Part shown: positions 8,454 through 35,661 of the stretch, piece after piece | Numbering within the stretch: position 1 is the stretch's first letter | Layout of the letters: each line of letters begins with the position of its first letter | Source of the DNA: a virus | Lineage: Duplodnaviria; Heunggongvirae; Uroviricota; Caudoviricetes | Strand: one strand, 5' to 3' | Virus record (IMG/VR): IMGVR_UViG_2554235304_000012 | Length of the DNA stretch: 35,661 nucleotides | Program-made: the position numbers and the translations under genes | Notes under the pieces: generated by a model | Seen by the model: only the letters and a program-made list of their open reading frames with translations | Databases searched by the model: none | What the model was told of the DNA's origin: nothing

Positions 8454-8488
8454 AAACCGCTAATGGTCAGATTAGCGGTTTTTATTTT
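8454..8488 (+). terminator. Rho-independent terminator after the FI-U operon (also abuts the 3' end of the invertase gene)
   Basis: Perfect 11-bp stem AAACCGCTAAT / ATTAGCGGTTT with loop GGTCAG, followed by TTTTATTTT. Confidence 0.55.
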
Positions 8489-9071
8489 CCTGAGTCTGCC
8501 TGGTTGTTTCTTCAGCCTGTATATCGCCTACAGGGTGATAACGATAAATCGTCGATATGCCGATGTCGTAAATGATCGCCAGTTGTTTCCTGTCATGACC
8601 GTTTTTAATCAGCCTCGCTATTTGCTCGTGTTGTTCTTTTGTCAACTTCGGGCGACGTCCGCCAATGCGTCCTTGTGCGCGTGCTGCTGCCAGCCCGGCC
8701 AGTGTACGCTCTACAATTAATTCACGTTCCATTTCGGCTAAAGCCCCCATGACGTGAAAAAAGAAACGCCCCATGGGTGTTGATGTGTCAATGCTGTCCG
8801 TCAGACTACGGAAATTAACACCTTTTTCCCGCAATTCCTCAATAAGCGTGATCAGGTGTTTCATACTTCTGCCCAGTCTGTCCAGCTTCCAGACAACCAG
8901 CGTATCTCCTTCTGATAGCGTTCTGAGCAGTTTTTTCAATCCCGGTCTGGCTGATTTCGTTCCGCTGATTTTATCTTCAAAAATCAGTTCACATCCTGCG
9001 CAGTTCAGTGCATTGCGTTGTAAATCCGTGTTCTGGTCATTTGTTGACACACGAATATAGCCAATTTGCAT
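8472..9071 (-). CDS. Cin/Gin/Hin-family serine DNA invertase
   Basis: MQIGYIRVSTNDQNTDLQRNAL..GCELIFEDKISG...RPGLKKLLR.L..GDTLVVWKLDRLGRSMKHL..LIEELRE.G.NFRSLTDSIDTSTPMGRFFFHVMGALAEMERELIVERT.AGL..ARAQGRIGGRRPKLT is near-identical in pattern to P1 Cin / Mu Gin as remembered. Start set to ATG 9071 (AGAGGA Shine-Dalgarno at correct spacing). Confidence 0.9.
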   Translation of the reverse strand: MQIGYIRVSTNDQNTDLQRNALNCAGCELIFEDKISGTKSARPGLKKLLRTLSEGDTLVVWKLDRLGRSMKHLITLIEELREKGVNFRSLTDSIDTSTPMGRFFFHVMGALAEMERELIVERTLAGLAAARAQGRIGGRRPKLTKEQHEQIARLIKNGHDRKQLAIIYDIGISTIYRYHPVGDIQAEETTRQTQENKNR

Positions 9072-9125: not shown

Positions 9126-9151
9126 AAAACGAAAACGTTGGTTTGGGGGAA
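9126..9151. repeat. hix/cix-like recombination site 1 (centre TT at 9138-9139)
   Basis: CGAAAACG-TT-GGTTTGGGGGAA. Homology to the other two copies begins exactly here. Confidence 0.5.
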
Positions 9152-9571
9152 GGCTCTGCACTGCCCGTTGGTGTGCCCGTTCCGTGGTCCTCAGCAACAC
9201 CACCAACGGGCTGGCTGAAATGTAACGGTGCAGCATTTTCTTCTGAAATGTATCCCAGACTGGCAAGGGCTTATCCCACCAATAAATTACCGGATTTACG
9301 CGGTGAATTTATCCGTGGCTGGGATGATGGGCGCGGGATTGATGCGGGACGTACCCTGCTTTCAGGGCAGGATGGTACAAGTTTTTCTCATTACGGAGGT
9401 AATTTCGACATTGGGTCTGGTCATTCAATCAATAACTATGACCAAATTGTTTCTAACCAACCAGGCTTTTCCCGTTTTTCATTTGCAGGGCCTTCACGAG
9501 GTGATGGGGTTAATTATGTAACCATTCGTCCTCGTAATATTACGTTTAATTACATCGTAAGGGCAGCATGA
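9139..9571 (+). CDS. Promoterless alternative tail-fibre C-terminal cassette 1 (silent orientation)
   Basis: The translation (within track ORF 9086..9571) shares GLGEGSALPVGVPVPW..ATPPTGWLKCNGAAFSSE.YP.LA.AYPTNKLPDLRGEFIRGWDDGRGIDA and the C-terminal PRNI.FNYIVRAA with the H C-terminus, but has a different middle region. Confidence 0.6.
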
Positions 9572-9590
9572 AAACGTTGGTTTGGGGGAA
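9565..9590. repeat. hix/cix-like recombination site 2 (centre TT at 9577-9578)
   Basis: GCATGAAAACG-TT-GGTTTGGGGGAA. Same core as site 1, in direct orientation to it. Confidence 0.5.
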
Positions 9591-10040
9591 GGCTCTGCAC
9601 TGCCCGTTGGTGTACCTGTTCCGTGGCCCTCAGCCACACCGCCAGCAGGGTGGCTGAAATGTAACGGTGCAGCATTTTCTTCTGAAATGTACCCAAAACT
9701 GGCAAAGGCCTACCCCACCAATAAATTACCGGATTTACGCGGTGAATTTATCCGTGGCTGGGATGATGGGCGCGGGGTGGATGCCGGAAGGGGCATCTTA
9801 AGCATGCAGGGGTGGTTAACAGGAAGTCATTATCATAATATTCGGTCATGGGATGCGTGGGATAACACGGTGTTGGTGCCAAATGACAAAGGAGGGGATA
9901 GTCTGTTGTCGACAGATAACGCCGTCCGGCAAGGTGCAATTAACGGTAGATTTACCAGTCAATACAGAACGGAATCCTCAGAGGGGAATGAAACCCACCC
10001 ACGCAATATTGCCTTCAATTATATTGTGAGAACCGCATAA
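9578..10040 (+). CDS. Promoterless alternative tail-fibre C-terminal cassette 2 (silent orientation)
   Basis: Track ORF 9582..10040. Shares the conserved junction sequence and C-terminal RPRNIAFNYIVR.A with H, with a distinct central receptor-binding region. Confidence 0.6.
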
Positions 10041-10651
10041 TGAATAACGCGATATTAAATGATGACCTTATTGCCGTACAGGCAGGAAACATCGTCGTTT
10101 ATAACTATGATGGTGAGACACGGGAATATATTTCCGAATCAACTGAATATCTTGCTGTGGGTGTCGGTATTCCGGCAAATTCCTGTTTAGATGCCCCGGG
10201 CGCACATAAAGCGGGCTATGCTATCCGCCGTTCGGAGAATTTAAGCTCATGGGAGTATGCGCCAGACCATCGTGGTGAAACCGTCTATAGCACTGACACG
10301 GGAAACACCGAAGAAATCACGGCGCTGGGTGACTACCCGAAAAATACAACCACTATCGCCCCGTTAACACCATACGATAAATGGGATGGTGAAAAATGGG
10401 TGACAGATACTGAGGCACAACATCGTGCTGCAGTAGAAGCGGCAGAAACCAAGCGCCAGTCACTGGCTGATGCGGCAATGGCTTCCATAAGTCTGATTCA
10501 GTTGAAGTTGCAGGCCGGGCGGAAGTTGACGCAGGCAGAAACCACCCGGCTTAATGCCGTGCTGGATTATATAGACGCGCTGAACGCAATGGATATAAAC
10601 ATGGCACCAGATATCAACTTGCCGGAAATACCACTGGCAGCAGCCAGTTGA
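10040..10651 (+). CDS. Tail fibre assembly chaperone (Tfa / Mu U / P2 G-like)
   Basis: 203 aa with ...WVTDTEAQHRAAVEAAETKRQSLADAAM..ISLIQLKLQAGRKLTQAETTRLNAVLDYIDALNAMD, typical of the Tfa C-terminal region. Start overlaps the cassette 2 stop. Convergent with H. Confidence 0.8.
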   Translation: MNNAILNDDLIAVQAGNIVVYNYDGETREYISESTEYLAVGVGIPANSCLDAPGAHKAGYAIRRSENLSSWEYAPDHRGETVYSTDTGNTEEITALGDYPKNTTTIAPLTPYDKWDGEKWVTDTEAQHRAAVEAAETKRQSLADAAMASISLIQLKLQAGRKLTQAETTRLNAVLDYIDALNAMDINMAPDINLPEIPLAAAS

Positions 10652-10657
10652 ATATAA

Positions 10658-12271
10658 CTAAGCCGCCCTCACGATATAGTTAAATGCAATATTGCGGGGG
10701 CGGGTTTCACTACCACCTGTGTTACCAATACTTCCTCGTGAATGAAGCGTTGGTGATGGAATCAAACTCCCTCCTGTATTTGTGGCATCAAGCCCCCTGC
10801 CTTGCGTATATGTTTTTTTGAAAATCGTGGCCAACTCCCATTCATCCTTTGTGTCATATCCATCGTTAGCTACAACAATATGGCGGTGTTTTTCCAACAT
10901 CCCGTTTTGAATGCTCAATAAAGCGCGTGCCGCATCAATTCCTCGCCCATCATCCCAGCCACGGATAAATTCACCGCGTAAGTCTGGTAATTTATTGGTG
11001 GGGTAAGCCCTTGCCAGTTTTGGGTACTTTTCAGAAGAAAATGCTGCGCCGTTACATTTCAGCCATCCCGTTGGCGGCGTGGCTGAGGGCCATGGAACGG
11101 GCACACCAACGGGCAGTGCAGAGCCTTCCCCCAAACCAAGGTAATCAAGAACTCCCTGAGTGCTGGTTTTACCAAGAATGGCACGTCCAACACTTGTCAA
11201 CGCGGTTAACGCGGCACGATCTGCCCCTGTAAAATATGGGAGTTTATCTGCTGATGTAGCAAGCTCTGCCAGCGCCGTCAGGGTGGCATCCTTCGGTTGC
11301 TTACCCGCAAGCGCGTTAGTCATGGTGGTCGCAAAATTCGGGTCATTGCCCAGCGCCGCAGCCAGTTCGTTCAGCGTGTTCAGTGCATCAGGTGACGAAT
11401 CTACAAGTGCGGCAATCGCGGCCATAACGAAAGCCGTGCTTGCGATCTGGGTACTATTAGTCCCCTGTGGCGCTGTTGGTGTTGTTGGCGTTCCGGTCAG
11501 TGCCGGGCTGTTTAATGGTGCTTTCTTGTTCGTTTCATCCATTACCGCCTTAACAGCTTTTGGTGTCGCTGCCAGCGTTTCAGACGTGCTGTTCGTGGCG
11601 CTACTGAGCTGAACAATTCCTTTTTGTGTAGTGGTGGCGTTCTGGGCGGTATATTTCCCGTTAGCCAGGTCATATGCAGCCTTAACCGCTTTCGGTGTTG
11701 CGGCCAGTGTTTCTGATTCACTGTTAATTGCACTGCTTAACTGAGTAAAACCTTTTACGGTCAGCGAGGCGTCCGGGTGACGTCGTGACTGTTCGTGCTC
11801 TGAGATTTTATCATCCACATATTTGCGGGTTGCCAGAACCACAGACGGGTCGATTTTCAGCGTGATGGCTTCGGTGTTCGTGACAACCAGAATCATGCGG
11901 ATAGTCTGGGTGCGTCCACTGCCTTCCTGCAACTGCGGTTTGTACGTTTCCGGGCAGTTTGCCACCGCAATGAGTACACCTTCATCATCATAAAGACCAA
12001 TCTCACGGATCCAGAATCCTCCCTCGTTTTCAGGGATGATTTGCTCCGCAATAATCTGGCTCTGATTGTTAGGGTCAACACTCAGAAGATTCAGCGGTGC
12101 AATGCGTTTCTGGTTAATCAGTTTTGTTTGTGCAGGGTCTGGTGTTGGTAACACACCATTTGCATCACCAACGGCCATTTGCGTCAGATTCAGCTTACTG
12201 CCGAGCATCGTCGCGTTAGCCAGTCGTGCCGCGCCCTGATTAGTCAGAATGGCGTAGTATTTCACTGTCAT
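10658..12271 (-). CDS. H: Tail fibre protein H (P2 H-like constant N-terminus fused to variable C-terminal segment)
   Basis: N-terminal about 380 aa align with P2 H (..ELVIPPE.GGFW.RE.GLYDD.G.LIAVAN..E.YKP...EGSGR.QT.RM.I..; SETLAATPKAVKAAYDLANGKYTAQ repeat). The C-terminal 159 aa start at the hix-like site. Confidence 0.85.
   Translation of the reverse strand: MTVKYYAILTNQGAARLANATMLGSKLNLTQMAVGDANGVLPTPDPAQTKLINQKRIAPLNLLSVDPNNQSQIIAEQIIPENEGGFWIREIGLYDDEGVLIAVANCPETYKPQLQEGSGRTQTIRMILVVTNTEAITLKIDPSVVLATRKYVDDKISEHEQSRRHPDASLTVKGFTQLSSAINSESETLAATPKAVKAAYDLANGKYTAQNATTTQKGIVQLSSATNSTSETLAATPKAVKAVMDETNKKAPLNSPALTGTPTTPTAPQGTNSTQIASTAFVMAAIAALVDSSPDALNTLNELAAALGNDPNFATTMTNALAGKQPKDATLTALAELATSADKLPYFTGADRAALTALTSVGRAILGKTSTQGVLDYLGLGEGSALPVGVPVPWPSATPPTGWLKCNGAAFSSEKYPKLARAYPTNKLPDLRGEFIRGWDDGRGIDAARALLSIQNGMLEKHRHIVVANDGYDTKDEWELATIFKKTYTQGRGLDATNTGGSLIPSPTLHSRGSIGNTGGSETRPRNIAFNYIVRAA
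11126..11151. repeat. hix/cix-like recombination site 3 inside H, inverted relative to sites 1 and 2 (centre at 11138-11139)
   Basis: Minus-strand reading is TTCTTGATTACC-TT-GGTTTGGGGGAA, very close to hixL TTCTTGAAAACC-AA-GGTTTTTGATAA as remembered. Confidence 0.55.
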
Positions 12272-24056: not shown

Positions 24057-26261
24057 TTACGTGTCGAGAGAAATTTGTGTGCGCAGTTGAATAGGATTCA
24101 GAATTGTATATCGCTGGCGAATAACATTATATAAATCAAAGTCTTTTACCCTTACGCTTATTACCATCGCATATTGCATATCAGGGGCTGAAACTCCCTT
24201 AACATGGCGCGAAGAATCTCGGGCATGATACCGTATATCAAAAACTGGATCGCTTAATAATGTATCAGCACTGAACTTTTTGCTTCTGTGCAAACAAGTT
24301 TCCCACTTATGACCTTCACTCCTACACTCCCTTTCAGTCTTATACTGGCTTTTTTGACCAAAGAAATCATCTGTATCGGTATCGTCAAGGCCGAATCTTG
24401 GGCGGAAAGTTACCTGCATACCGGCCCTTGTATAGTTTACTGAATGTTCAGGATCTACTGGGGTTTGAATGCATAAAGTAGCGGTAAGCTCAAATGCTTC
24501 GTCAAAGGGAACATCAGGGAATGGGATCGGTGCCCTTAAATATTTATTTTTTGCTAATGAACCATAGTAAATTACTGTAGCAGTATCATTTGGACAATCG
24601 ATTAAAACGTTAGGATCCTCACTAAACCGTCCCCAACCGATATGTTCACGCGAATATTTTCTTGATGTTTCAGCATGATGAACAAGCAACGCTTTCAATG
24701 CAATGGTGTTCAATGGAGTTCCTGATAGAGCCGCAACTCCAGCGGCCGTTCTCAATGCTAATGGAGAGGCATAACTGGTTCCTTGAACTCCAACTATAGA
24801 ACCAAGCAGAGGGTTGTAAGTGTAAAAAGGCTCGTCGTCGCTTCCACCAAAAATAACACCATCAGGTTTAACGAATCCGGGGCTTCTGCCTGGCCCAATA
24901 CAGCTATATGGTGCCCGCCCCCATTTTTCACCGCTACGATCAGCAGCACCAATCGCTAGCGCGTTTACCATATCGGAAGGAGGTTGTATTCTCGCTGCAT
25001 CACCGTCCTCATTGCCATCATTCCCAACAGCAACAGTAAGTAATATCCCATGCTTAGCACAGATTTGGTCTAAAACAGCAGTCCATACATGAACCTCATC
25101 ATCACCAATTGGAAGATGAGGACCAATACTTAGATTAGCGAACTTATAGTCACCACTATCAAGAACGGACTGTATTTTCTTAAGGACATCAAATAAATCC
25201 CAATTGCCATTGTCACCTGATGTCGGTGAAAGAACTCTATAATGATCTACATTCATAAACGGTCTTTTAAAAGAAGGTGCATTTTCCTCGACACGTCCGA
25301 ATAAGAAAGTGGATGTCACTTCATTACCGTGCTGCAATAATAATCCGCTTGTTTCTTTGGTGTCTGGATACACGTATTCCGTAACCCAATTACTCAAGTC
25401 AGCTGTCCCCAAGCCACCATCAAAAATGGCAATACGTTCGGATTCAAGAACAGCTTTAGAATTAGGGAGCTCCGGTGTAACTATATTAGATAACTTTCTG
25501 ACAATGTTCGGCTGAGTACACCTGAGAGACGGCATCGGCCGCACAACGCGGATTAATGAAAAATCGAGTGTTTTTTTCATATCTTCAGGTCGCGCGTGTG
25601 CAACGATGAAAGTCAGCCCACCAACTTGGATTCTACTTTTGTAATCAACAGAGACATCATATTGTGCCGCATAGCTAATATAGGCTTTAACGATATCATC
25701 GTCTTCAACCCCAGCATGAAGAACCACTTCAAATTTTATCAAATCACTTTTCGCATGCTCAAAATTGCGTGCTCTCTCTTTTCCTTCAAAAAAGCTAACA
25801 CTTTCAATTTCGATCAAATCCTTTTGTACGCCCTTCGGAGCTGTAGGGGAATTTAAAATTTCCTTAAATCTTATAACGGCATCATCATCACCGCTAACAA
25901 ACAGTTGCGCCGTTACTAAGTCCTTATTCTGATCGCACTGACGTGCCGCTTTCCGTGGGCGAATGATTACCTGACGGCTGCCGACATCCCGTAAACCTGT
26001 CGCTCTAAGCAATCCTTCCGGAAAGTAGCTTTTACCCAAAAACGCTGGGTGTAAAGTTAAATTGAATACACTCTCCCCCCTTGGCTTAGCCGCATCATCC
26101 AAACTGCGAAAGCGTGAGAGTAAAGTATCAATCTCTGGGTTTAAATGCTCCCTTACTTCTTCAAGAGTATAGGGATAGCGCTTACCATCCCTTCCTTTAG
26201 GCAAAGGTTCCTTTTTTGTCAGAACATGACCGTTACCTAAAAGTAAGTTCCTTTCCATCAT
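24057..26261 (-). CDS. Subtilisin-like serine peptidase (S8 family), 734 aa; IetS-like
   Basis: Asp box IAIFDGGLG, oxyanion-hole region VAVGNDGNEDG and Ser box GTSYASPLALRTAAG in S8 order. Start overlaps the upstream ATPase stop by 4 nt. AT-rich by eye. Confidence 0.85.
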   Translation of the reverse strand: MMERNLLLGNGHVLTKKEPLPKGRDGKRYPYTLEEVREHLNPEIDTLLSRFRSLDDAAKPRGESVFNLTLHPAFLGKSYFPEGLLRATGLRDVGSRQVIIRPRKAARQCDQNKDLVTAQLFVSGDDDAVIRFKEILNSPTAPKGVQKDLIEIESVSFFEGKERARNFEHAKSDLIKFEVVLHAGVEDDDIVKAYISYAAQYDVSVDYKSRIQVGGLTFIVAHARPEDMKKTLDFSLIRVVRPMPSLRCTQPNIVRKLSNIVTPELPNSKAVLESERIAIFDGGLGTADLSNWVTEYVYPDTKETSGLLLQHGNEVTSTFLFGRVEENAPSFKRPFMNVDHYRVLSPTSGDNGNWDLFDVLKKIQSVLDSGDYKFANLSIGPHLPIGDDEVHVWTAVLDQICAKHGILLTVAVGNDGNEDGDAARIQPPSDMVNALAIGAADRSGEKWGRAPYSCIGPGRSPGFVKPDGVIFGGSDDEPFYTYNPLLGSIVGVQGTSYASPLALRTAAGVAALSGTPLNTIALKALLVHHAETSRKYSREHIGWGRFSEDPNVLIDCPNDTATVIYYGSLAKNKYLRAPIPFPDVPFDEAFELTATLCIQTPVDPEHSVNYTRAGMQVTFRPRFGLDDTDTDDFFGQKSQYKTERECRSEGHKWETCLHRSKKFSADTLLSDPVFDIRYHARDSSRHVKGVSAPDMQYAMVISVRVKDFDLYNVIRQRYTILNPIQLRTQISLDT

Positions 26262-27340
26262 TTAATCCCCCACTTTTGTAATTTATTCGCGATTGTTGGA
26301 TGTGAAACACCAACTAATTCAGCTATCTTCCTATTTGAAAAACCGTCAAAATGATATTTAATTATATTGAGATCATTATCGCTAAACTCATCCAATGAAA
26401 CCCTCTCCGTAATTACGGCTTCTATTAATGAGCTTTCAAATGGAATATTTCTAAGTACCTCATTCTTTTTGGAGAAATTCAAAATACGGTTAATGATGGC
26501 AAAGGACATGCCATCTAATAATGGTGCAAGTTTTTTAGATAGTTCAGGTTCAATATTATGATTGACTAAATATCTATCTATCAGTTCTACTGATGGCATA
26601 TTAAATTTAAGGATGTGCTCAAATCGACGCCAAACAGCCGGATCTAAGATATCAGGGTGATTAGTCGCAGCAACAAGAAGCGAGGTCGCTGGCCACTCAT
26701 CTATGGTCTGTAGGAGTACAGTAACTAAACGTTTTAATTCTCCAACGTCCCTGTCATCATCACGTCTTTTTGCAACAGCATCAAATTCATCAAGCAAAAG
26801 GACACATGGTTTCTCTTTGGCATAATCCATAACGGATTTAATATTATTACCTGTTTTTCCCAAAAGAGAACTCATTACAGATGAGAGATCCAATGTTAAA
26901 AGAGGTAAATTTAACTTTGCAGCAAGCCAATGTGCGGACATTGTTTTGCCTACGCCTGGCGGGCCAGAAAGTAAAACCGTCTTCACAGGTTCAAGACCAG
27001 CTTTGAACAAAGAAACCGCATTCTCTCTTTCGTTAACAATTGACTCCAGCTTCTTTGAGATATCCGTATTCCATACAGGTTCTTCAACAATTGCGTTGAC
27101 AGATGTTTCCTGCAAAAGGTTTCGTCTGGAGTCTCCATCCACAGGCATAGGAGCCTTACTAGATGCCCCACGTAATACTGTTCCCTCAGCAACTAACGAA
27201 GCCAGCTTAGAAGCTAAAGCCTCATCATTTTTACGGATGTTGTTAATCATCTTTCTGCATAGGAGTGTAAATGCATTTGCGTTGCCTTTGATGCCTTGCT
27301 CGATGAGTTTGAAAAGTTCATCCTCCCTCACGTTTACCAT
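26258..27340 (-). CDS. AAA+ ATPase with C-terminal helix-turn-helix, 360 aa; IetA-like
   Basis: Walker A GPPGVGKT, Walker B VLLLDEFD, sensor/SRH region LLVAATNHPDILDPAVWRRF, and a C-terminal HTH NRKIAELVGVSHPTIANKLQKWGI. Confidence 0.85.
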   Translation of the reverse strand: MVNVREDELFKLIEQGIKGNANAFTLLCRKMINNIRKNDEALASKLASLVAEGTVLRGASSKAPMPVDGDSRRNLLQETSVNAIVEEPVWNTDISKKLESIVNERENAVSLFKAGLEPVKTVLLSGPPGVGKTMSAHWLAAKLNLPLLTLDLSSVMSSLLGKTGNNIKSVMDYAKEKPCVLLLDEFDAVAKRRDDDRDVGELKRLVTVLLQTIDEWPATSLLVAATNHPDILDPAVWRRFEHILKFNMPSVELIDRYLVNHNIEPELSKKLAPLLDGMSFAIINRILNFSKKNEVLRNIPFESSLIEAVITERVSLDEFSDNDLNIIKYHFDGFSNRKIAELVGVSHPTIANKLQKWGIK

Positions 27341-27718: not shown

Positions 27719-28030
27719 TTATTCAGGAAATAACGCCCGGATATTTCCGGCCATCTGACTGGTTATCTGTGCGGTTGATACTGGCTGTGACGCGGGGCGT
27801 TCTGTCTTGGTTTGTGTCACTGATAACACCTCATCATCAGCCCATGCAGCCAGTCGGTAAGCCTCTGCCGGATTCATTTTCAGAAGTGCCAGCCCGGCCA
27901 GAAAAGCCACGCGTTGGCCGCTTTTGCGGGCTTCTGGTGTAAGGCTGTCCAGCCAGGCGCATGCTTCTCCTTCGTTCTTGACGGCGGTGGGCTTCAGATA
28001 GAAACTTATCCGTCTGGTTGGAGTCGTCAT
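27719..28030 (-). CDS. parR: ParR-like centromere-binding adaptor (putative)
   Basis: 103 aa from ATG 28030 with AAGGAG Shine-Dalgarno, immediately downstream of parM as in R1 parMR. N-terminal RISFYL.P ... LDSLTPEARKSGQRVAFLAGLAL weakly resembles R1 ParR (RTIAFKL.P...LDSIPQGERSRLNRAALTAGLAL). Confidence 0.6.
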   Translation of the reverse strand: MTTPTRRISFYLKPTAVKNEGEACAWLDSLTPEARKSGQRVAFLAGLALLKMNPAEAYRLAAWADDEVLSVTQTKTERPASQPVSTAQITSQMAGNIRALFPE

Positions 28031-28034
28031 TGGT

Positions 28035-28994
28035 TTACTCCTTGTCCATTGCGTACAGCCCATTAACCAGAGCAAACTGTGGCACCCCGTCCGCGATGAA
28101 AGTCGCATTAACTCCGCAGGCTTCGCGGATAGCGGGTGCCACAATCTCCGCCCCTCCACCGACAACCATCACCCGCCCGTAACCCGAAAAAACCGCCAGC
28201 GCGCGGATCACGCGTTGTTTCAGTGTTTCCTCCTTTTCACGAATAACTGCCATCAGGCTGGCGTAATGCGCGTCATTGTGGATGTGCTGGCGCAGCCAGG
28301 CTTCATCGTGGCGATGTTCGATAATGGTATTGGCGATGTGGTGACTGGTGCGCATACCGTTGGTGGCCATCACCGACAGCACGGCATCGGCCATCAGAGA
28401 AACGCCTACGTGTGGATCGCAAAACACCTGGCTGATACCTGCCAGTTGCCCCTGAACCTTTGCCACATCCAGCGTGGTTCCGCCCAAATCCACAATCAGC
28501 AGGGATTCAAACGGACTCATGTCAGCCAGTGCTTTAAAGCCAGCCGGAATGGATTCAGGCATAACCCGCACGTTACGGATAGTGAATGCCTCGCCGTTTT
28601 GGTACTCCACCGGGCGCATAACGTTCGCTTTTTTGCGGTTGATGTTGGCCATGTCCGGCTGTGCGTTTGTGTCGAAATACTCGCTCAGTGGCAGGGTGAC
28701 AACCACATCCACCTCCTGTGGCGTGATGCCTGATTTGACCAGCGCATGATGAATGGCAATGACATTCACATCGCTGTACTGGTATTGCGTGTCGGTCGTC
28801 TGGACAAAGCGATCGCTGACCGGATCAAAACCATAGCGCACGCCATCAAGCATGTAGTTCGCGGGCTGCGTGCCACCGAACGGCGCAGACCATTCCGACT
28901 TGAAGCTGTTCGGGCTGATGGCGTTGCGGTGTTCGCCGTTCTCAGTCCATGCCAGCTTGATGTTGGTGGAGCCGTCGTCGATACAAATTTTCAT
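28035..28994 (-). CDS. parM: ParM/StbA actin-like segregation ATPase
   Basis: MKICIDDGSTNIKLAW......ISPNSFK.EW...FG...NY.L.G..Y.FDP.S......T....YSDVNV.A.HHAL..SG....EVD.V.T.PL.E..D.N.QP...NI.RKKAN..R......G..FTI..V.VMPESIPAG...L......SLLI.DLGGTTLD aligns closely with R1 ParM as remembered. Confidence 0.9.
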   Translation of the reverse strand: MKICIDDGSTNIKLAWTENGEHRNAISPNSFKSEWSAPFGGTQPANYMLDGVRYGFDPVSDRFVQTTDTQYQYSDVNVIAIHHALVKSGITPQEVDVVVTLPLSEYFDTNAQPDMANINRKKANVMRPVEYQNGEAFTIRNVRVMPESIPAGFKALADMSPFESLLIVDLGGTTLDVAKVQGQLAGISQVFCDPHVGVSLMADAVLSVMATNGMRTSHHIANTIIEHRHDEAWLRQHIHNDAHYASLMAVIREKEETLKQRVIRALAVFSGYGRVMVVGGGAEIVAPAIREACGVNATFIADGVPQFALVNGLYAMDKE

Positions 28995-29031
28995 GTCGCT
29001 TTTCCTTATGTTGATTAATTAATCGGTTACA

Positions 29032-29134
29032 GGATTTTTAAATCCCGTTTTCGCCTGTTTTGTGCGCGCTTCATATATCGCGGCGCGTTTTTTGCTCATT
29101 TACGGGATTTGTGAATCCCGTTTTTGTCTGTTTT
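29032..29134. repeat. parC-like repeats upstream of parM (two ~30-bp direct repeats, each with an internal inverted repeat)
   Basis: GGATTTTTAAATCCCGTTTTCGCCTGTTTT (29032-29061) and GGGATTTGTGAATCCCGTTTTTGTCTGTTTT (29104-29134). The second copy lies inside the last codons of gene A. Confidence 0.45.
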
Positions 29135-31893
29135 TTGTTTCCACTGGTCAGGCCACCCCGCAGCAGGTCTGCTTTGCGGCGGGCGCGTTCAGTTGTTTCA
29201 CTGATTCTCTGTTCGTGCTCTGCGTCGCGGATGGCGCGCAGCATGTCAGAAAGTACGGTAACGGGTGTTTTCATGGTGTTCTGGTCTTGCTGAAGTGTGG
29301 ATGCCAGGCGTGCGGCGGCTTCAGGGTCTGATGCCCCTAGTTGTTCCAGATAGCTGGCGACCGGGTTATGGCGGATCTCCGTGCTGCTTACGCCGTGGTT
29401 ACGGCTCAGGCGTTGCCAGAGCTGCGTGATTCGGCTGTCCGGGCGGGTATCCGGTTTACGTACAATTTCATATCCCTGCGGTGCAATGATGCTGCCGTCA
29501 ACGTACAGGCTGCCGCCCCGTAACAGGTGCTGCATCTGCTGTTCACCGATATGCAGGCCGAGAGATTCAGCAGACTCCCGCCATTCTTTAGCGAGTAATT
29601 CGTGGTTATCAGGCAAAGGCCGCTGCTGTTTGCGGCTCTGTGTCCAGCTCTGCATTTCATCACTGCTGTTTTTTGCCTGTTTGTCACGAAGCGAACGCAT
29701 CAGCGCCCGGCGTTCGTGCCGTTTCAGTGAGCGCACCCATTCGTTCACTTCAACGCCGTCAGGGAGCTGCGGCCACGGTGCTGGCCGTTCTTCCGGCTGT
29801 TCTGTCCCGTTGTTGTCCGTTTCCTGTACACGGGGACAGTTATTGCCACGAGTCCAAGGGGCGGCAGGGCCGCCCTGAAGGTCAAAACCATTTTCGTGGG
29901 CGCTGCCTTCCTGTTCCGGTTTACGTCTTACCAGCTTCCAGTTATCCGGGTGCGTGCACACACGGGAGGATTCCCCGATGAGTGGTGACCAGATCCCGTA
30001 AATCTGTACACTCTGTTCGCCGTAATCGTTCAGCTCATCGGCGAGGTCGTAGGCGGTGCGAATCAGGTAGTCTTTGCGTGGAACAAGTACACCGCCCTGT
30101 TTCTCTATGTAGGTGGCAAAACATCCGGCATCAGCGGCAGCGAGTACCGCATCCATTGCGTCATCCTTCAGCCGTTGCGGGCCTTCCGGGTTGCGTGCCA
30201 TCTGGCTGGCAAGGCGGCGGAGTTCACGCCACACCTGACGGGAGGGGATGCCAAAGAACTGGAACTGGCGGACCCGGTGAAGGCGTGCCCAACCGATGGC
30301 GCGCTCCACGCTCTCGGCCATTGATTTTCCGGTTTCGTGGTCAACGCGTGGTTTGCCCGTTTTCGGGTCGATGCCATCCACGGCGCGGCTGTCCAGGTTT
30401 TTTCCGATGTAGGTGGCGATGTAGCTGGTTGGCGTGCCTTTGGTGCCGTCGACGTACTCCACCTTAAAGCGCGGAGTAATATCATTGCCCAGCTCGTGGC
30501 GGTCTTCCTGAATGGCAATATCGCGGGTGATGGTCACGATGCTGTCGATTTCTTCCGGATGAGCAAAGACCATCATATGCCAGTGCACGGTGCCGTCATG
30601 GTGAGGCTCCACCGTGCGGATGCCATACCAGCGCAGGCCGTCGCGGTTCAGTTTTTTGCGGACCGCCGCAAAAAACGTGTTAACCAGGTAATCGCTGGAG
30701 TCGCGCATGGTGGCCCCGTTCCATTTGGGGTTCGGATGACCGTTCTCCGTTGTTGCGTGGTATTTTGACGGGCAGGTGACAGTCAGAAACACCGCTCTGT
30801 CGCCACGGGCTTCGGCCAGAAGTTCCAGTCCCTTCATGGTGGCCATCATTTCTGCCTTACGGTGAACCGGGTTACTTACTCCCGCGTAATACACTGTCTC
30901 GAGATCAATCGTGAACCCGTCTTCGTTTTCCAGCATGAAACTTTTCAGGAAATCGCGTGTTTTCTCGCGCTGTGCGCGAAACTCGCTTAACGCGTCCTGG
31001 CTCAGATAGGGCGATGTTTTTCTGGAAACCAGACAGGCGGCGCGGAGTTGTTCTTCTCTCCACTCGCAACGTAACAGCCACAGTTTGCGTTTCCACCATT
31101 CCGCACAGGTCAGGCGAAGGATTGCGCCCGGCAGCAGCTCCGTGTCCGGTTCGTTCCTCCGGTCTTTGTCTGTTGTCAGTGCGTCATAATGTGGAGGCAT
31201 GGCGTGCAGGTGTAACGCCATGCGGGCCAGCATCTGATACGCCTTCAGGGTTACATCCATGGTCAGCTCGCCATCGGTCGCGCCAAAGCCATCGCAGAGT
31301 TTTTCGAAGGTGCTGCTGAACATCGCCGCCGTCATGGTTGCCAGCGTCTTTATCTGGTGTTTGTTGAGCTGCGGCAGGTAAAGCAAATCGTCCAGGCGTT
31401 CGCGTCCGGCAAGGGAGCGATAACCCGGTGTCAGCCAGCGGTGATCGGTGCGCTCCAGACGTTCGAATATTTTGCGCAGGGTCCCACGCGCATAGCGTTC
31501 TGCCTGCCTGGCGTTTTTTCCTTTCTGACGATCGGCTTCCTGTTTTTTGCGCAGGAAGGAGAGGTGGCGAATAAGCGGATCGCGCAGATAGGACGGCAGC
31601 AGGCGCAGCGAGGCCATGGCTTCATCCACCGCGCCGCGTGCCTGTTTTCTGGCGTCTCCTGCCAGTGTGATGGTTTTGTCCTGTTTTTCCTGTGCGTCCA
31701 GGCTTTTATTAATCAGGTTGCCCAGCGGCGTGGCGGAGAACGCCGCATCAGCCATTTCCTGGCGGTGCTCGTTCTCTGCCCGGTAGGCATCCAGCCAGGA
31801 GGAAAGCGCGGATTCAGGAGCGGGGATCCCCGTTCCTTCACGCCCCACTGCGTGGCGCGGTTGTTGCCAGTCCCTGATGTACTCTGCCGTCAT
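29071..31893 (-). CDS. A: Replication initiation protein A (rolling-circle HUH endonuclease family), 940 aa with C-terminal extension
   Basis: Position and orientation as P2 A. A histidine-rich HUH-like motif (PHHDGTVHWHMMVFAHP) consistent with a rolling-circle initiator. Uninterrupted ORF, about 180 aa longer than P2 A (761 aa). Confidence 0.85.
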   Translation of the reverse strand: MTAEYIRDWQQPRHAVGREGTGIPAPESALSSWLDAYRAENEHRQEMADAAFSATPLGNLINKSLDAQEKQDKTITLAGDARKQARGAVDEAMASLRLLPSYLRDPLIRHLSFLRKKQEADRQKGKNARQAERYARGTLRKIFERLERTDHRWLTPGYRSLAGRERLDDLLYLPQLNKHQIKTLATMTAAMFSSTFEKLCDGFGATDGELTMDVTLKAYQMLARMALHLHAMPPHYDALTTDKDRRNEPDTELLPGAILRLTCAEWWKRKLWLLRCEWREEQLRAACLVSRKTSPYLSQDALSEFRAQREKTRDFLKSFMLENEDGFTIDLETVYYAGVSNPVHRKAEMMATMKGLELLAEARGDRAVFLTVTCPSKYHATTENGHPNPKWNGATMRDSSDYLVNTFFAAVRKKLNRDGLRWYGIRTVEPHHDGTVHWHMMVFAHPEEIDSIVTITRDIAIQEDRHELGNDITPRFKVEYVDGTKGTPTSYIATYIGKNLDSRAVDGIDPKTGKPRVDHETGKSMAESVERAIGWARLHRVRQFQFFGIPSRQVWRELRRLASQMARNPEGPQRLKDDAMDAVLAAADAGCFATYIEKQGGVLVPRKDYLIRTAYDLADELNDYGEQSVQIYGIWSPLIGESSRVCTHPDNWKLVRRKPEQEGSAHENGFDLQGGPAAPWTRGNNCPRVQETDNNGTEQPEERPAPWPQLPDGVEVNEWVRSLKRHERRALMRSLRDKQAKNSSDEMQSWTQSRKQQRPLPDNHELLAKEWRESAESLGLHIGEQQMQHLLRGGSLYVDGSIIAPQGYEIVRKPDTRPDSRITQLWQRLSRNHGVSSTEIRHNPVASYLEQLGASDPEAAARLASTLQQDQNTMKTPVTVLSDMLRAIRDAEHEQRISETTERARRKADLLRGGLTSGNKKQTKTGFTNPVNEQKTRRDI

Positions 31894-34686: not shown

Positions 34687-35661
34687 ATGAGCATAAAATC
34701 AATTCCGGGAGGGTATCTTCTTGACATGCGCCCTGAGGGGCGTAAAGGCAAACGCATTCGCAAAAAATTTAAAACGAAATCGGATGCAGTTTTATATGAG
34801 CGGTGGGTGCTGGCGCAACAGCATAACAATGAGTGGAAAGGAAACTCCATTGATCGCCGTCCGCTGTCGGTGCTTATTGACTTGTGGTGGAAATACCACG
34901 GCCAGCTAATGAAGTCAGGGCATAACACGCGCCTTAAATTGCTGCGCTTGAGTGAGGCAATGGATGACCCGTGTGTGCATAAACTTAATACAACGATGCT
35001 CACCGAGCTACGTGTGTCCAGGATAGAGCAGGGGATACAGCCCAGCACCATTAATCGAGAGATTGGGGCGTTAAGCGCGATGTTTACCGCACTCATCTCA
35101 TCCGGCCATTTTCTTAACGATAACCCCGTTCAAGGCCTTAAAGGAATGAAGGTTAACGAGCGCGAAATGGGATATCTGAGTAAGTCTGAATGTGTTCAGT
35201 TGCTGGATGCACTGGCTGAAAATCCCGATGAACGGCTGGCTGTCGAAATCCTTCTGTCGACCGGGGCGCGATGGGGCGAGGTAGCGGCACTGGAGCAGCG
35301 CCGTGTTCTTCATTGTCGAATCACTTTTTCAAAAACGAAGAACAGCAAAAACCGTACCGTTCCTATTTCTGAAAGCCTGTTTGAAAAGATCAAAAAACGG
35401 GGCGGGAAACTGGTGTTTCCGACGCTGGATTATCCATTGGTTCGCGATGTCATCAAAACGGTCGCACCTGATGTTCCTGACGGCCAGGCTGTTCATGCGC
35501 TGCGCCACACCTTCGCCAGTCATTTCATGATGAACGGCGGCAATATTCTGACGCTCCAGAAAATTCTGGGGCACGCAAAGATTCAGACAACGATGATTTA
35601 TGCCCATCTTGCGCCGGATTACTTGCAGGATGCGGTGAGATTTAATCCTATTGCTGGGTAA
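34687..35661 (+). CDS. int: Tyrosine integrase (P2 Int family)
   Basis: 324 aa from ATG 34687. C-terminal catalytic region with the tyrosine-recombinase signature (...GARWGEV...HALRHTFASHFMMNGGNILTLQKILGHAKIQTTMIYAHL). Stop is at the last base of the window. Confidence 0.9.
   Translation: MSIKSIPGGYLLDMRPEGRKGKRIRKKFKTKSDAVLYERWVLAQQHNNEWKGNSIDRRPLSVLIDLWWKYHGQLMKSGHNTRLKLLRLSEAMDDPCVHKLNTTMLTELRVSRIEQGIQPSTINREIGALSAMFTALISSGHFLNDNPVQGLKGMKVNEREMGYLSKSECVQLLDALAENPDERLAVEILLSTGARWGEVAALEQRRVLHCRITFSKTKNSKNRTVPISESLFEKIKKRGGKLVFPTLDYPLVRDVIKTVAPDVPDGQAVHALRHTFASHFMMNGGNILTLQKILGHAKIQTTMIYAHLAPDYLQDAVRFNPIAG

Follow-up and report, generated by a model that had tools for sequence, protein, structure and literature searches.

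What might a virus that integrates into its host's chromosome gain from active DNA segregation? Partition systems are usually seen as plasmid equipment, and the question is put in testable form by a locus in the 35,661-nucleotide stretch of tailed-phage DNA analysed here (IMG/VR record IMGVR_UViG_2554235304_000012, hereafter the window), in which genes for an actin-like protein, ParM, and a predicted adaptor, ParR, follow a pair of repeats proposed as their centromere, parC, all on the minus strand between positions 27719 and 29137. An earlier note on this DNA, made from the sequence alone, had taken the locus for an R1-type partition system and had thought such a module unexpected in an integrative P2-like prophage. 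The identification stands and the surprise does not: a clear R1-type ParMRC module is among the conserved core genes of an integrating phage lineage found in about 24% of complete Escherichia coli genomes, and related modules sit in at least four other P2-like lineages. Our preferred reading, to which we give a probability of about 0.45, is that the window carries a complete type II (ParMRC) cassette, selectively maintained at the end of the early replication block, which would work, by analogy with plasmid systems, to segregate free phage circles to both daughter cells. At 100% identity, the region matches the chromosome of E. coli O127:H6 strain E2348/69 (NC_011601.1), where it belongs to a complete P2-type prophage, and its nearest phages are P88, Shae_phiSM and other Xuanwuvirus members (Peduoviridae).

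The parM and parR genes and their distribution

The larger gene, parM (28035-28994, minus strand, 319 amino acids), encodes what is, judged by its family and structure matches, an actin-fold ATPase of the ParM/StbA family. The close alignment with plasmid R1 ParM that had been proposed is borne out by three lines that agree: Pfam matches to StbA_N (2.7e-82) and to the ParM C-terminal domain (6.3e-69), a phmmer match to the R1 ParM structure 1mwk across residues 2-316 (8.6e-93), and an identity to R1 ParM of roughly 47-50% over the full length (47% to an R1-like plasmid ParM by alignment). The nucleotide-binding motifs are intact (DDGSTN at residue 6 for phosphate 1, DLGGTT at 169 for phosphate 2 and GGGA at 279 for adenosine), and 91 alignment columns are invariant over phage and plasmid ParMs. 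Ratios of nonsynonymous to synonymous substitution rates (dN/dS) of 0.03-0.10, which include a Hafnia relative at a synonymous distance (dS) of 0.60, make ParM more constrained than gpA, the neighbouring replication gene, for which the ratio is 0.22. Selection of this strength, together with the intact motifs, rules out a decaying relic, and on the same ground the suggestion that the module is a leftover from recombination with a plasmid is rejected. Because the closest plasmid ParMs found reach only 52-53% identity, acquisition of the module appears to be old. Composition had already led the earlier note to an older, backbone-like acquisition separate from the adjacent AT-rich cassette, and the guanine-plus-cytosine (GC) profile gives the same picture, with values of 0.50-0.56 over parMR, 0.52-0.60 in the backbone and 0.38-0.45 in the neighbouring cassette.

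Four nucleotides separate the parM stop codon (28035-28037) from the ATG of parR (28030-28028), with a GGAG within the end of parM. The second gene, parR (27719-28030, minus strand), is predicted to encode the centromere-binding adaptor; its product is 103 amino acids long from the ATG taken here as the start, the mechanical list of open reading frames (ORFs) giving a longer TTG start, and it matches Pfam PF10784 (Plasmid_stab_B) at 6.7e-24 over residues 6-76. The ParR-sized gene closely coupled to parM that had been described is therefore present and of the right family; the two genes do not overlap. ParR evolves faster than ParM (dN/dS 0.23-0.46), and it does so unevenly: over 24 homologues there is hardly any variation in residues 1-66 or in the eight C-terminal residues (NIRALFPE), and the stretch 67-95 is hypervariable. 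The N-terminal domain is ribbon-helix-helix-like and putatively DNA-binding, and the RRISFYLKP strand region and the C-terminal tail align with the ParRs of R1-type, IncFIA, IncL/M and IncK plasmids, the tail resembling the plasmid tails KNAMKLIN, NIKNLFPDDE (IncFIA) and NVQHLFPDDD (IncL/M). A profile built from phage and plasmid ParRs matches the structure of pB171 ParR (2JD3) at 8.5e-12, and this is also the top PDB match of a phage-only profile, at a marginal E value of 0.015. A tblastn search with ParR did not find a plasmid ParR, though Pfam and profile searches link the two. The AlphaFold2 model of the ParR monomer is poor (predicted local distance difference test, pLDDT, 56), such that the fold is not confirmed from it; a poor monomer model is to be expected if the protein is an obligate dimer.

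How widely the pair is held was assessed among phages and in complete E. coli genomes. Where the P88 type is defined by a gpA at least 80% identical to that of the window, parM is present at 95% identity or more in 14/14 phage records; in other sequenced phages it was not found, save in the P1-like phage-plasmid D6 (48% identity). Of the 5426 complete E. coli genomes, 1307 (24%) contain the parC-parMR stretch, enteropathogenic E. coli (EPEC), O157 and ST131 strains among them, at 1453 chromosomal places as against 2 on plasmids. Among the 1354 genomes with the P88-type gpA 3' region at good coverage, 1278 (about 94%) also hold parMR. Since the module is present across the P88-type phages and travels with their type of gpA in E. 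coli, it is core, standard equipment of a common P88-like prophage lineage. Standard cargo with a known role would have made the locus unremarkable; the cargo is indeed standard, and literature searches found no functional study from which a role could be taken. A ParM 98% identical to that of the window, with the same upstream region, also lies on a 226-kb contig labelled Vagococcus sp. WN89Y (L009, NZ_JBQPOM010000071.1), which probably reflects contamination or an Enterobacterales assembly filed under the wrong name.

Beyond the P88 type, the next-closest ParMs in a large protein collection are 62, 62, 58 and 54% identical to that of the window, and all are in P2-like prophages, of Plesiomonas (L100), Hafnia (L101), Serratia (L102) and Enterobacter ludwigii (L103). 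In each of the four, parMR follows gpA and precedes the portal-terminase genes. The ParMs of the Serratia and Enterobacter modules are about 60% identical to those of IncF and IncL/M plasmids, as close as they are to the other phage ParMs, which hints at more than one exchange of parMR between plasmids and P2-like phages. The Plesiomonas shigelloides module is carried on a contig of 32,167 bp (WEKF01000002.1), approximately the size of a phage genome, on which int lies 141 bp from the end, and this contig may represent a free or actively excising phage genome.

ParR is not uniform within the lineage. Several alleles are only 52-57% identical to the window allele (loci L005 and L006; the divergent part is 27719-27976, the 3' three-quarters of the gene), nucleotide similarity between alleles ends near codon 18, and another allele is found in O157:H7 and many ST131 genomes. 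The interval between parR and the portal gene is a variable hotspot, occupied here by the AT-rich cassette (24057-27340, minus strand), an IetA/IetS anti-phage defence pair that comprises an AAA ATPase, IetA (26258-27340), and an S8 peptidase, IetS (24057-26261), with PADLOC scores of 3.6e-89 and 6.6e-41 for the pair; other relatives have HicAB or a KAP NTPase in the same interval. As the N-terminal domain and the last eight residues of ParR are kept and the linker is hypervariable, the allele pattern suggests recombination that spills into parR from the adjacent hotspot.

Paired palindromes upstream of parM

The repeats occupy 29027-29064 (the proximal block) and 29100-29137 (the distal block). 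They are 38 nucleotides long and 84% identical, lie 73 nucleotides apart from start to start, and each contains an inverted repeat of 8-9 nucleotides. Both blocks combine an A-rich stretch with a palindromic core, which is GGGATTCACAAATCCC in the distal block (16 bp, 29104-29119) and GGGATTTAAAAATCCT in the proximal one (29031-29046), and a 24-nucleotide degenerate pattern has only these two copies in the 35.6 kb of the window, with matches in 0 of 100 shuffles. Two repeats with internal inverted repeats ahead of parM had been reported from the sequence and are there; the distal copy is not intergenic. It falls within the last 25 codons of gpA, which encodes a gpA-type rolling-circle replication endonuclease of 940 amino acids (29071-31893, minus strand; Pfam Phage_GPA 8.8e-131) and lies directly upstream of parM in the same orientation. 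The centre of the putative parC (29065-29099) holds the gpA stop codon (29071-29073), between the two copies, and a GC-rich inverted repeat, and the parM leader (28995-29026) follows with a box, ATTAATCAA (29011-29019), and the Shine-Dalgarno sequence AAGGA (29003-29007).

Across 12/12 loci the cores, GGGAYT-N4-AAWCCC, stand at -125 and -52 from the parM ATG with a spacing of 73 bp, and the four nucleotides at the centres of the palindromes vary freely. Protein half-sites would fit such a pattern, since the spacing of the cores is constant while their centres vary; an RNA structure is unsupported, because changes in the palindrome arms are one-sided and never compensatory. A further comparison is with the Hafnia relative L016, whose ParM is 94% identical. 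There, a one-nucleotide indel shifts the gpA frame over the distal copy and places the stop codon inside the palindrome, and the DNA sequence of both copies is nonetheless kept. The blocks of the window and L016 are 72-85% identical; identity falls to 55% in the centre and to about 50% over the gpA 3' end. Among close E. coli relatives the evidence is weaker and the counts are equivocal: 69% of sites segregate in the centre and 39-42% in the blocks (counts from contig scans with ParM, in which matching loci were all 97-100% identical).

Either copy can be translated as K-Q-x-K-T-G-F-x-N-P-V, the one as part of the tail of gpA, the other within a small ORF of 26 codons. A coding origin of the repeats, as a duplication of the gpA 3' end left by insertion, is ruled out by L016, which keeps the DNA repeats though its gpA reads the distal copy in another frame. 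The small ORF itself (MSKKRAAIYEARTKQAKTGFKNPVTD, 29019-29099, minus strand) starts in the gpA tail and covers the parC centre and the proximal site; it is open and unchanged in length in E. coli relatives as well as in L016 (MNKTRAIDISACKKQAKTGFENPISD), and may be either a genuine micro-gene or a side effect of constraint on the DNA.

Sites of the same kind accompany two of the more distant modules, whose ParMs are 62% identical to that of the window. Ahead of the Plesiomonas parM, two GGG-N10-CCC sites stand at -131 and -59, 72 bp apart, and ahead of that of Hafnia L101 at -128 and -55, 73 bp apart; there is one such pair per locus, and a pair arises in 0.2-0.35% of shuffles. The lineages with GGG/CCC cores have the ParR strand motif RR(I/V)SFYL(K/N)P in common. 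Since the ORF upstream of the sites in L101 is one other than gpA, the sites travel with parM and not with gpA. The Serratia and Enterobacter modules have a different arrangement, with inverted repeats of 14-20 nucleotides, 26-28 nucleotides apart, within 150 nucleotides upstream of parM, and a related half-site of the GCAAAAACGGGAAC type. The constancy of the 72-73 bp spacing over three lineages, despite differing flanks and a different gpA frame, supports interpretation of the repeats as a bipartite parC with two putative ParR sites.

The repeats were also considered as a replication origin and rejected, a better candidate being a conserved 43-nucleotide island inside gpA (29829-29871, minus strand). 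The island is 100% identical in Hafnia L016 against a surrounding background of 50-70%. At the nucleotide level it is about 91% identical in Fels-2, SEN8, RE2010 and phages of Klebsiella and Yersinia, and in Burkholderia phages 85%, although the gpA proteins of these more distant phages are only 30-44% identical to that of the window. Its probable role is that of a rolling-circle origin or nick site. The P2 origin sits inside gene A, with which the position of the island agrees.

What an integrating phage may gain

On the preferred reading, the two 16-bp GGG-N10-CCC palindromes astride the gpA stop codon would be a parC bound by dimers of ParR, and they would present themselves on the same face of the DNA, given that 73 bp is about seven helical turns. 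The conserved C-terminal tail of ParR would then capture the ends of ParM-ATP filaments, and filament growth between two ParR-parC complexes would drive sister phage circles apart. As for timing, the early genes run cox...B...A and then parM-parR, all in the same orientation, and a terminator scan of the minus strand found no terminator-like site between gpA and parM; from this arrangement we infer that parMR is expressed with the early operon, while the phage genome is a free circle copied by gpA. The module would act after infection and before integration, or again after excision, and would be silent in the repressed, integrated prophage. The benefit to the phage would be that each daughter cell receives one of the few free circles, so that the phage is not diluted out of a dividing population.

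Several observations weigh against this account. The putative parC offers two sites only, compared with ten iterons in R1-type parC, and nucleotide diversity (pi) is not reduced in the proximal block among close E. coli relatives (0.078, against 0.068 in the centre). A consensus scan of the parM strand gave no promoter above its threshold, and none that convinces as sigma-70 lies between or beside the sites, as a consequence of which the classical autoregulated parC layout is not demonstrated; the parC centre has a weak promoter candidate (ATGAGC-N16-TATATG), and the ATTAATCAA box, 17-25 nucleotides upstream of the parM ATG and common to the window, Plesiomonas L100 and Hafnia L101, may serve as a -10 region. 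Binding by ParR, filament formation and stabilisation are predicted functions, the timing of expression is read from gene order alone, and searches of supplements for the O157 CP-933T homologues found neither transcript nor protein data for the module. P2-type cells that express the early operon usually proceed to lysis, in which case inheritance by daughter cells would be irrelevant.

Lysis does, of course, leave room for another use of the same machinery. ParMRC might spread the monomeric circles made by gpA for replication and packaging, with no role in inheritance by daughter cells: P2 replication gives circular monomers, which are the packaging substrate, early-operon expression normally comes before lysis, and the cassette lies directly after the replication gene, some 700 bp from the candidate origin. 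A precedent exists in the integrated CGP3 prophage, for which AlpC and AlpA are described as needed for efficient viral DNA replication (PMC4446434). That most P2-like phages (the P2, 186, PSP3 and Fels-2 types) do without the module, and that R1-type ParM filaments are bipolar pushers suited to low-copy pairs, leaves this an unlikely role, albeit one to be taken seriously. The doubts about the sites themselves have a different focus, namely that the repeats are not a centromere at all, acting instead as weak terminators of the plus strand or as sites for another protein, with parMR working elsewhere or with no site in cis. Each palindrome is followed by a T-run on the plus strand, terminator scores are weak but one of the two passes the terminator scan, the predicted hairpins reach -6.5 to -11 kcal/mol, there are only two copies, and ParR binding is a prediction. 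A terminator has nonetheless little to do at this position, where no plus-strand gene or promoter inside parM that would need termination at its 5' end is evident, and the constant spacing of 72-73 bp would be meaningless for it; the one-sided arm changes, the company that the sites keep with parM in Hafnia L101, the location of the origin candidate elsewhere and the failure to find an Rfam family match for the repeats all tell in the same direction, and we think a non-centromeric role rather improbable. Conserved sites in cis also favour action on the phage itself over action in trans on other replicons, such as competing plasmids or phage-plasmids, in a form of lysogenic conversion or interference. 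The likeness of the ParR tail to those of IncFIA and IncL/M ParRs, and the adjoining defence hotspot with its IetAS pair, would suit interference; PADLOC gives ParM and ParR no match, we found no evidence of expression in lysogens, and the variant in which the module is merely decaying is excluded by selection on ParM and its intact motifs. Taken together, interference and decay are very improbable.

There remains the idea that the integrated state is not the whole life of these phages. As a facultative phage-plasmid, the element would use gpA, the origin, parC and parMR as a unit of replication and partition, and would persist as a low-copy plasmid whenever integration is impossible, in alternation with the integrated state. 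P88 is one of the putative phage-plasmids of Pfeifer et al. 2021, who suggested episomal and integrative states (PMC7969092), and a circular record of 34,461 bp, pZ1323PEC0009-2 (L003, NZ_CP148288.1), amounts to a whole P88-like genome, with the phage-sized Plesiomonas contig and its int 141 bp from the end as a possible second instance. The record comes from an E. coli isolate of a cat; a human isolate of the same project has the identical phage as a prophage between flk and pdxB (L104, NZ_CP148378.1, 2649383-2683854), and the ends of the plasmid record coincide with the att boundaries of this integrated twin. The plasmid record is not among the matches from the complete E. coli genomes, a collection that probably lacks this assembly. 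Against such a reading stand the 1453 chromosomal places to 2 on plasmids in complete E. coli genomes, the retention of integrase, repressor and Cox in all members examined, and the fact that the gpA needed for replication comes from the early operon, which the repressor silences in lysogens; spontaneous induction in the sequenced culture would explain a circular contig equally well. The integrase of the window, whose presence had been recorded in the earlier note, lies at 34687-35661 beside chromosomal btuC, and gpA was the only initiator found by Pfam, with no other replication gene seen in the annotation. Extrachromosomal maintenance is not the state of the lysogens, the single 34.4-kb circular record being the exception. 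A phage-plasmid reading of P88-like prophages is possible, but faintly so. A stronger version, meant for P88-like and other parMR-bearing P2-like phages, in which a self-contained rolling-circle replicon with its own centromere lives for many generations as a low-copy plasmid, for example in a carrier state or where attB is missing or already taken, seems to us improbable as well, by a hair the less so of the two. Were it true, a quarter of E. coli genomes would hold a latent phage-plasmid, and integrative phage and phage-plasmid would be two states of one element.

Segregation of free circles by a working ParMRC, the reading preferred here, has its value in the questions it makes accessible. 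P88 is inducible and engineerable, which makes it a tractable system (PMC5285337), and, should it be confirmed, a parC of only two palindromes would offer a minimal centromere in which to study how ParR couples to ParM. There is also a practical consequence for annotation, in that the module leads classifiers to label these prophages plasmids or phage-plasmids. Elsewhere in the window, a gene of the recombinase family (invertase-like; 8472-9071, minus strand, RefSeq annotation) lies beside tail-fibre genes at about 9143-12271, and the tail-fibre and tail-fibre-assembly genes near it are in opposed orientation, an arrangement that resembles a Gin/Cin-type invertible host-range segment.

Prior reports and known partition systems

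GenBank and RefSeq annotation already name ParM and a partitioning/stability protein. The presence of partition genes in the integrative P88, and the idea of a dual state, are given in one sentence by Pfeifer et al. 2021, in whose putative phage-plasmid community P88 appears with Burkholderia KS-14 (PMC7969092); Magaziner et al. 2019 listed the phiSM gene as a 'fitness' factor (PMC6456863), and the P88 genome paper makes no mention of parMR (PMC5285337). As far as the literature searched shows, what is new here is how prevalent the module is and how strongly selection acts on ParM, that related modules occupy the equivalent position in four more P2-like lineages, and that a conserved two-palindrome parC candidate overlaps the gpA stop codon.

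The closest model is the ParMRC system of plasmids R1 and NR1 (parA/stbAB). Phage and plasmid share the order parC-parM-parR, the same two Pfam domains in ParM, the same Pfam family for ParR with its N-terminal DNA-binding region and C-terminal tail, and repeated sites in two blocks upstream of parM. They differ in that the iterons of R1-type parC, A/C-rich and 11 bp long, form two sets that flank a clear promoter, whereas the phage has two 16-bp palindromes, of which one falls within the gpA coding sequence, and lacks a clear promoter; in the length of ParR, 103 amino acids in the phage and 117 in the R1 type; and in the replicon served, an integrative rolling-circle phage in one case and a theta plasmid in the other. 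To judge from these features, the candidate phage parC is a compact two-site variant of the R1-like plan. The ParR of pB171 (2JD3, deposited as 'StbB protein') is the top profile relative, with phage residues 8-68 aligned to residues 10-69 of the chain.

Among phages, the P1-like phage-plasmid D6 is likewise a tailed temperate phage with plasmid-type partition, and its ParM is 48% identical; D6 and P1 are, however, obligate plasmids in lysogeny with theta replication, whilst the P88-like phages have int, repressor and cox and are more than 99% chromosomal. The AlpAC/alpS system of the Corynebacterium glutamicum prophage CGP3 (Donovan et al. 2015, PMC4446434) similarly joins a prophage actin-like protein to a DNA-binding adaptor on phage DNA. 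It belongs to another actin-like family in another phylum, with no close sequence relationship, and its role is in the transport of viral DNA and the efficiency of replication.

Perhaps the most instructive comparison is with srpMRC of the SXT/R391 integrative and conjugative elements (Carraro et al. 2015, PMC4489591), in which srpM is preceded by four short repeats; the locus is switched on only when the element is activated, and it stabilises the element once excised. Here too a ParM-type locus with a few short direct or inverted repeats upstream is strictly conserved in elements that are normally integrated, and action is shown, or in the phage proposed, only on a transient, excised form that replicates by rolling circle. 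SrpM is distant from R1 ParM and SrpR has no recognisable ParR domain, whereas both phage proteins clearly belong to their families; srpMRC is in one operon with int, controlled by SetCD, whereas the phage module follows the replication gene; and the function of srpMRC has been demonstrated, where that of the phage module is predicted from sequence and analogy. The P88-like module would accordingly be the phage counterpart of srpMRC, a second case of a nominally 'integrated' element that depends on a brief extrachromosomal phase.

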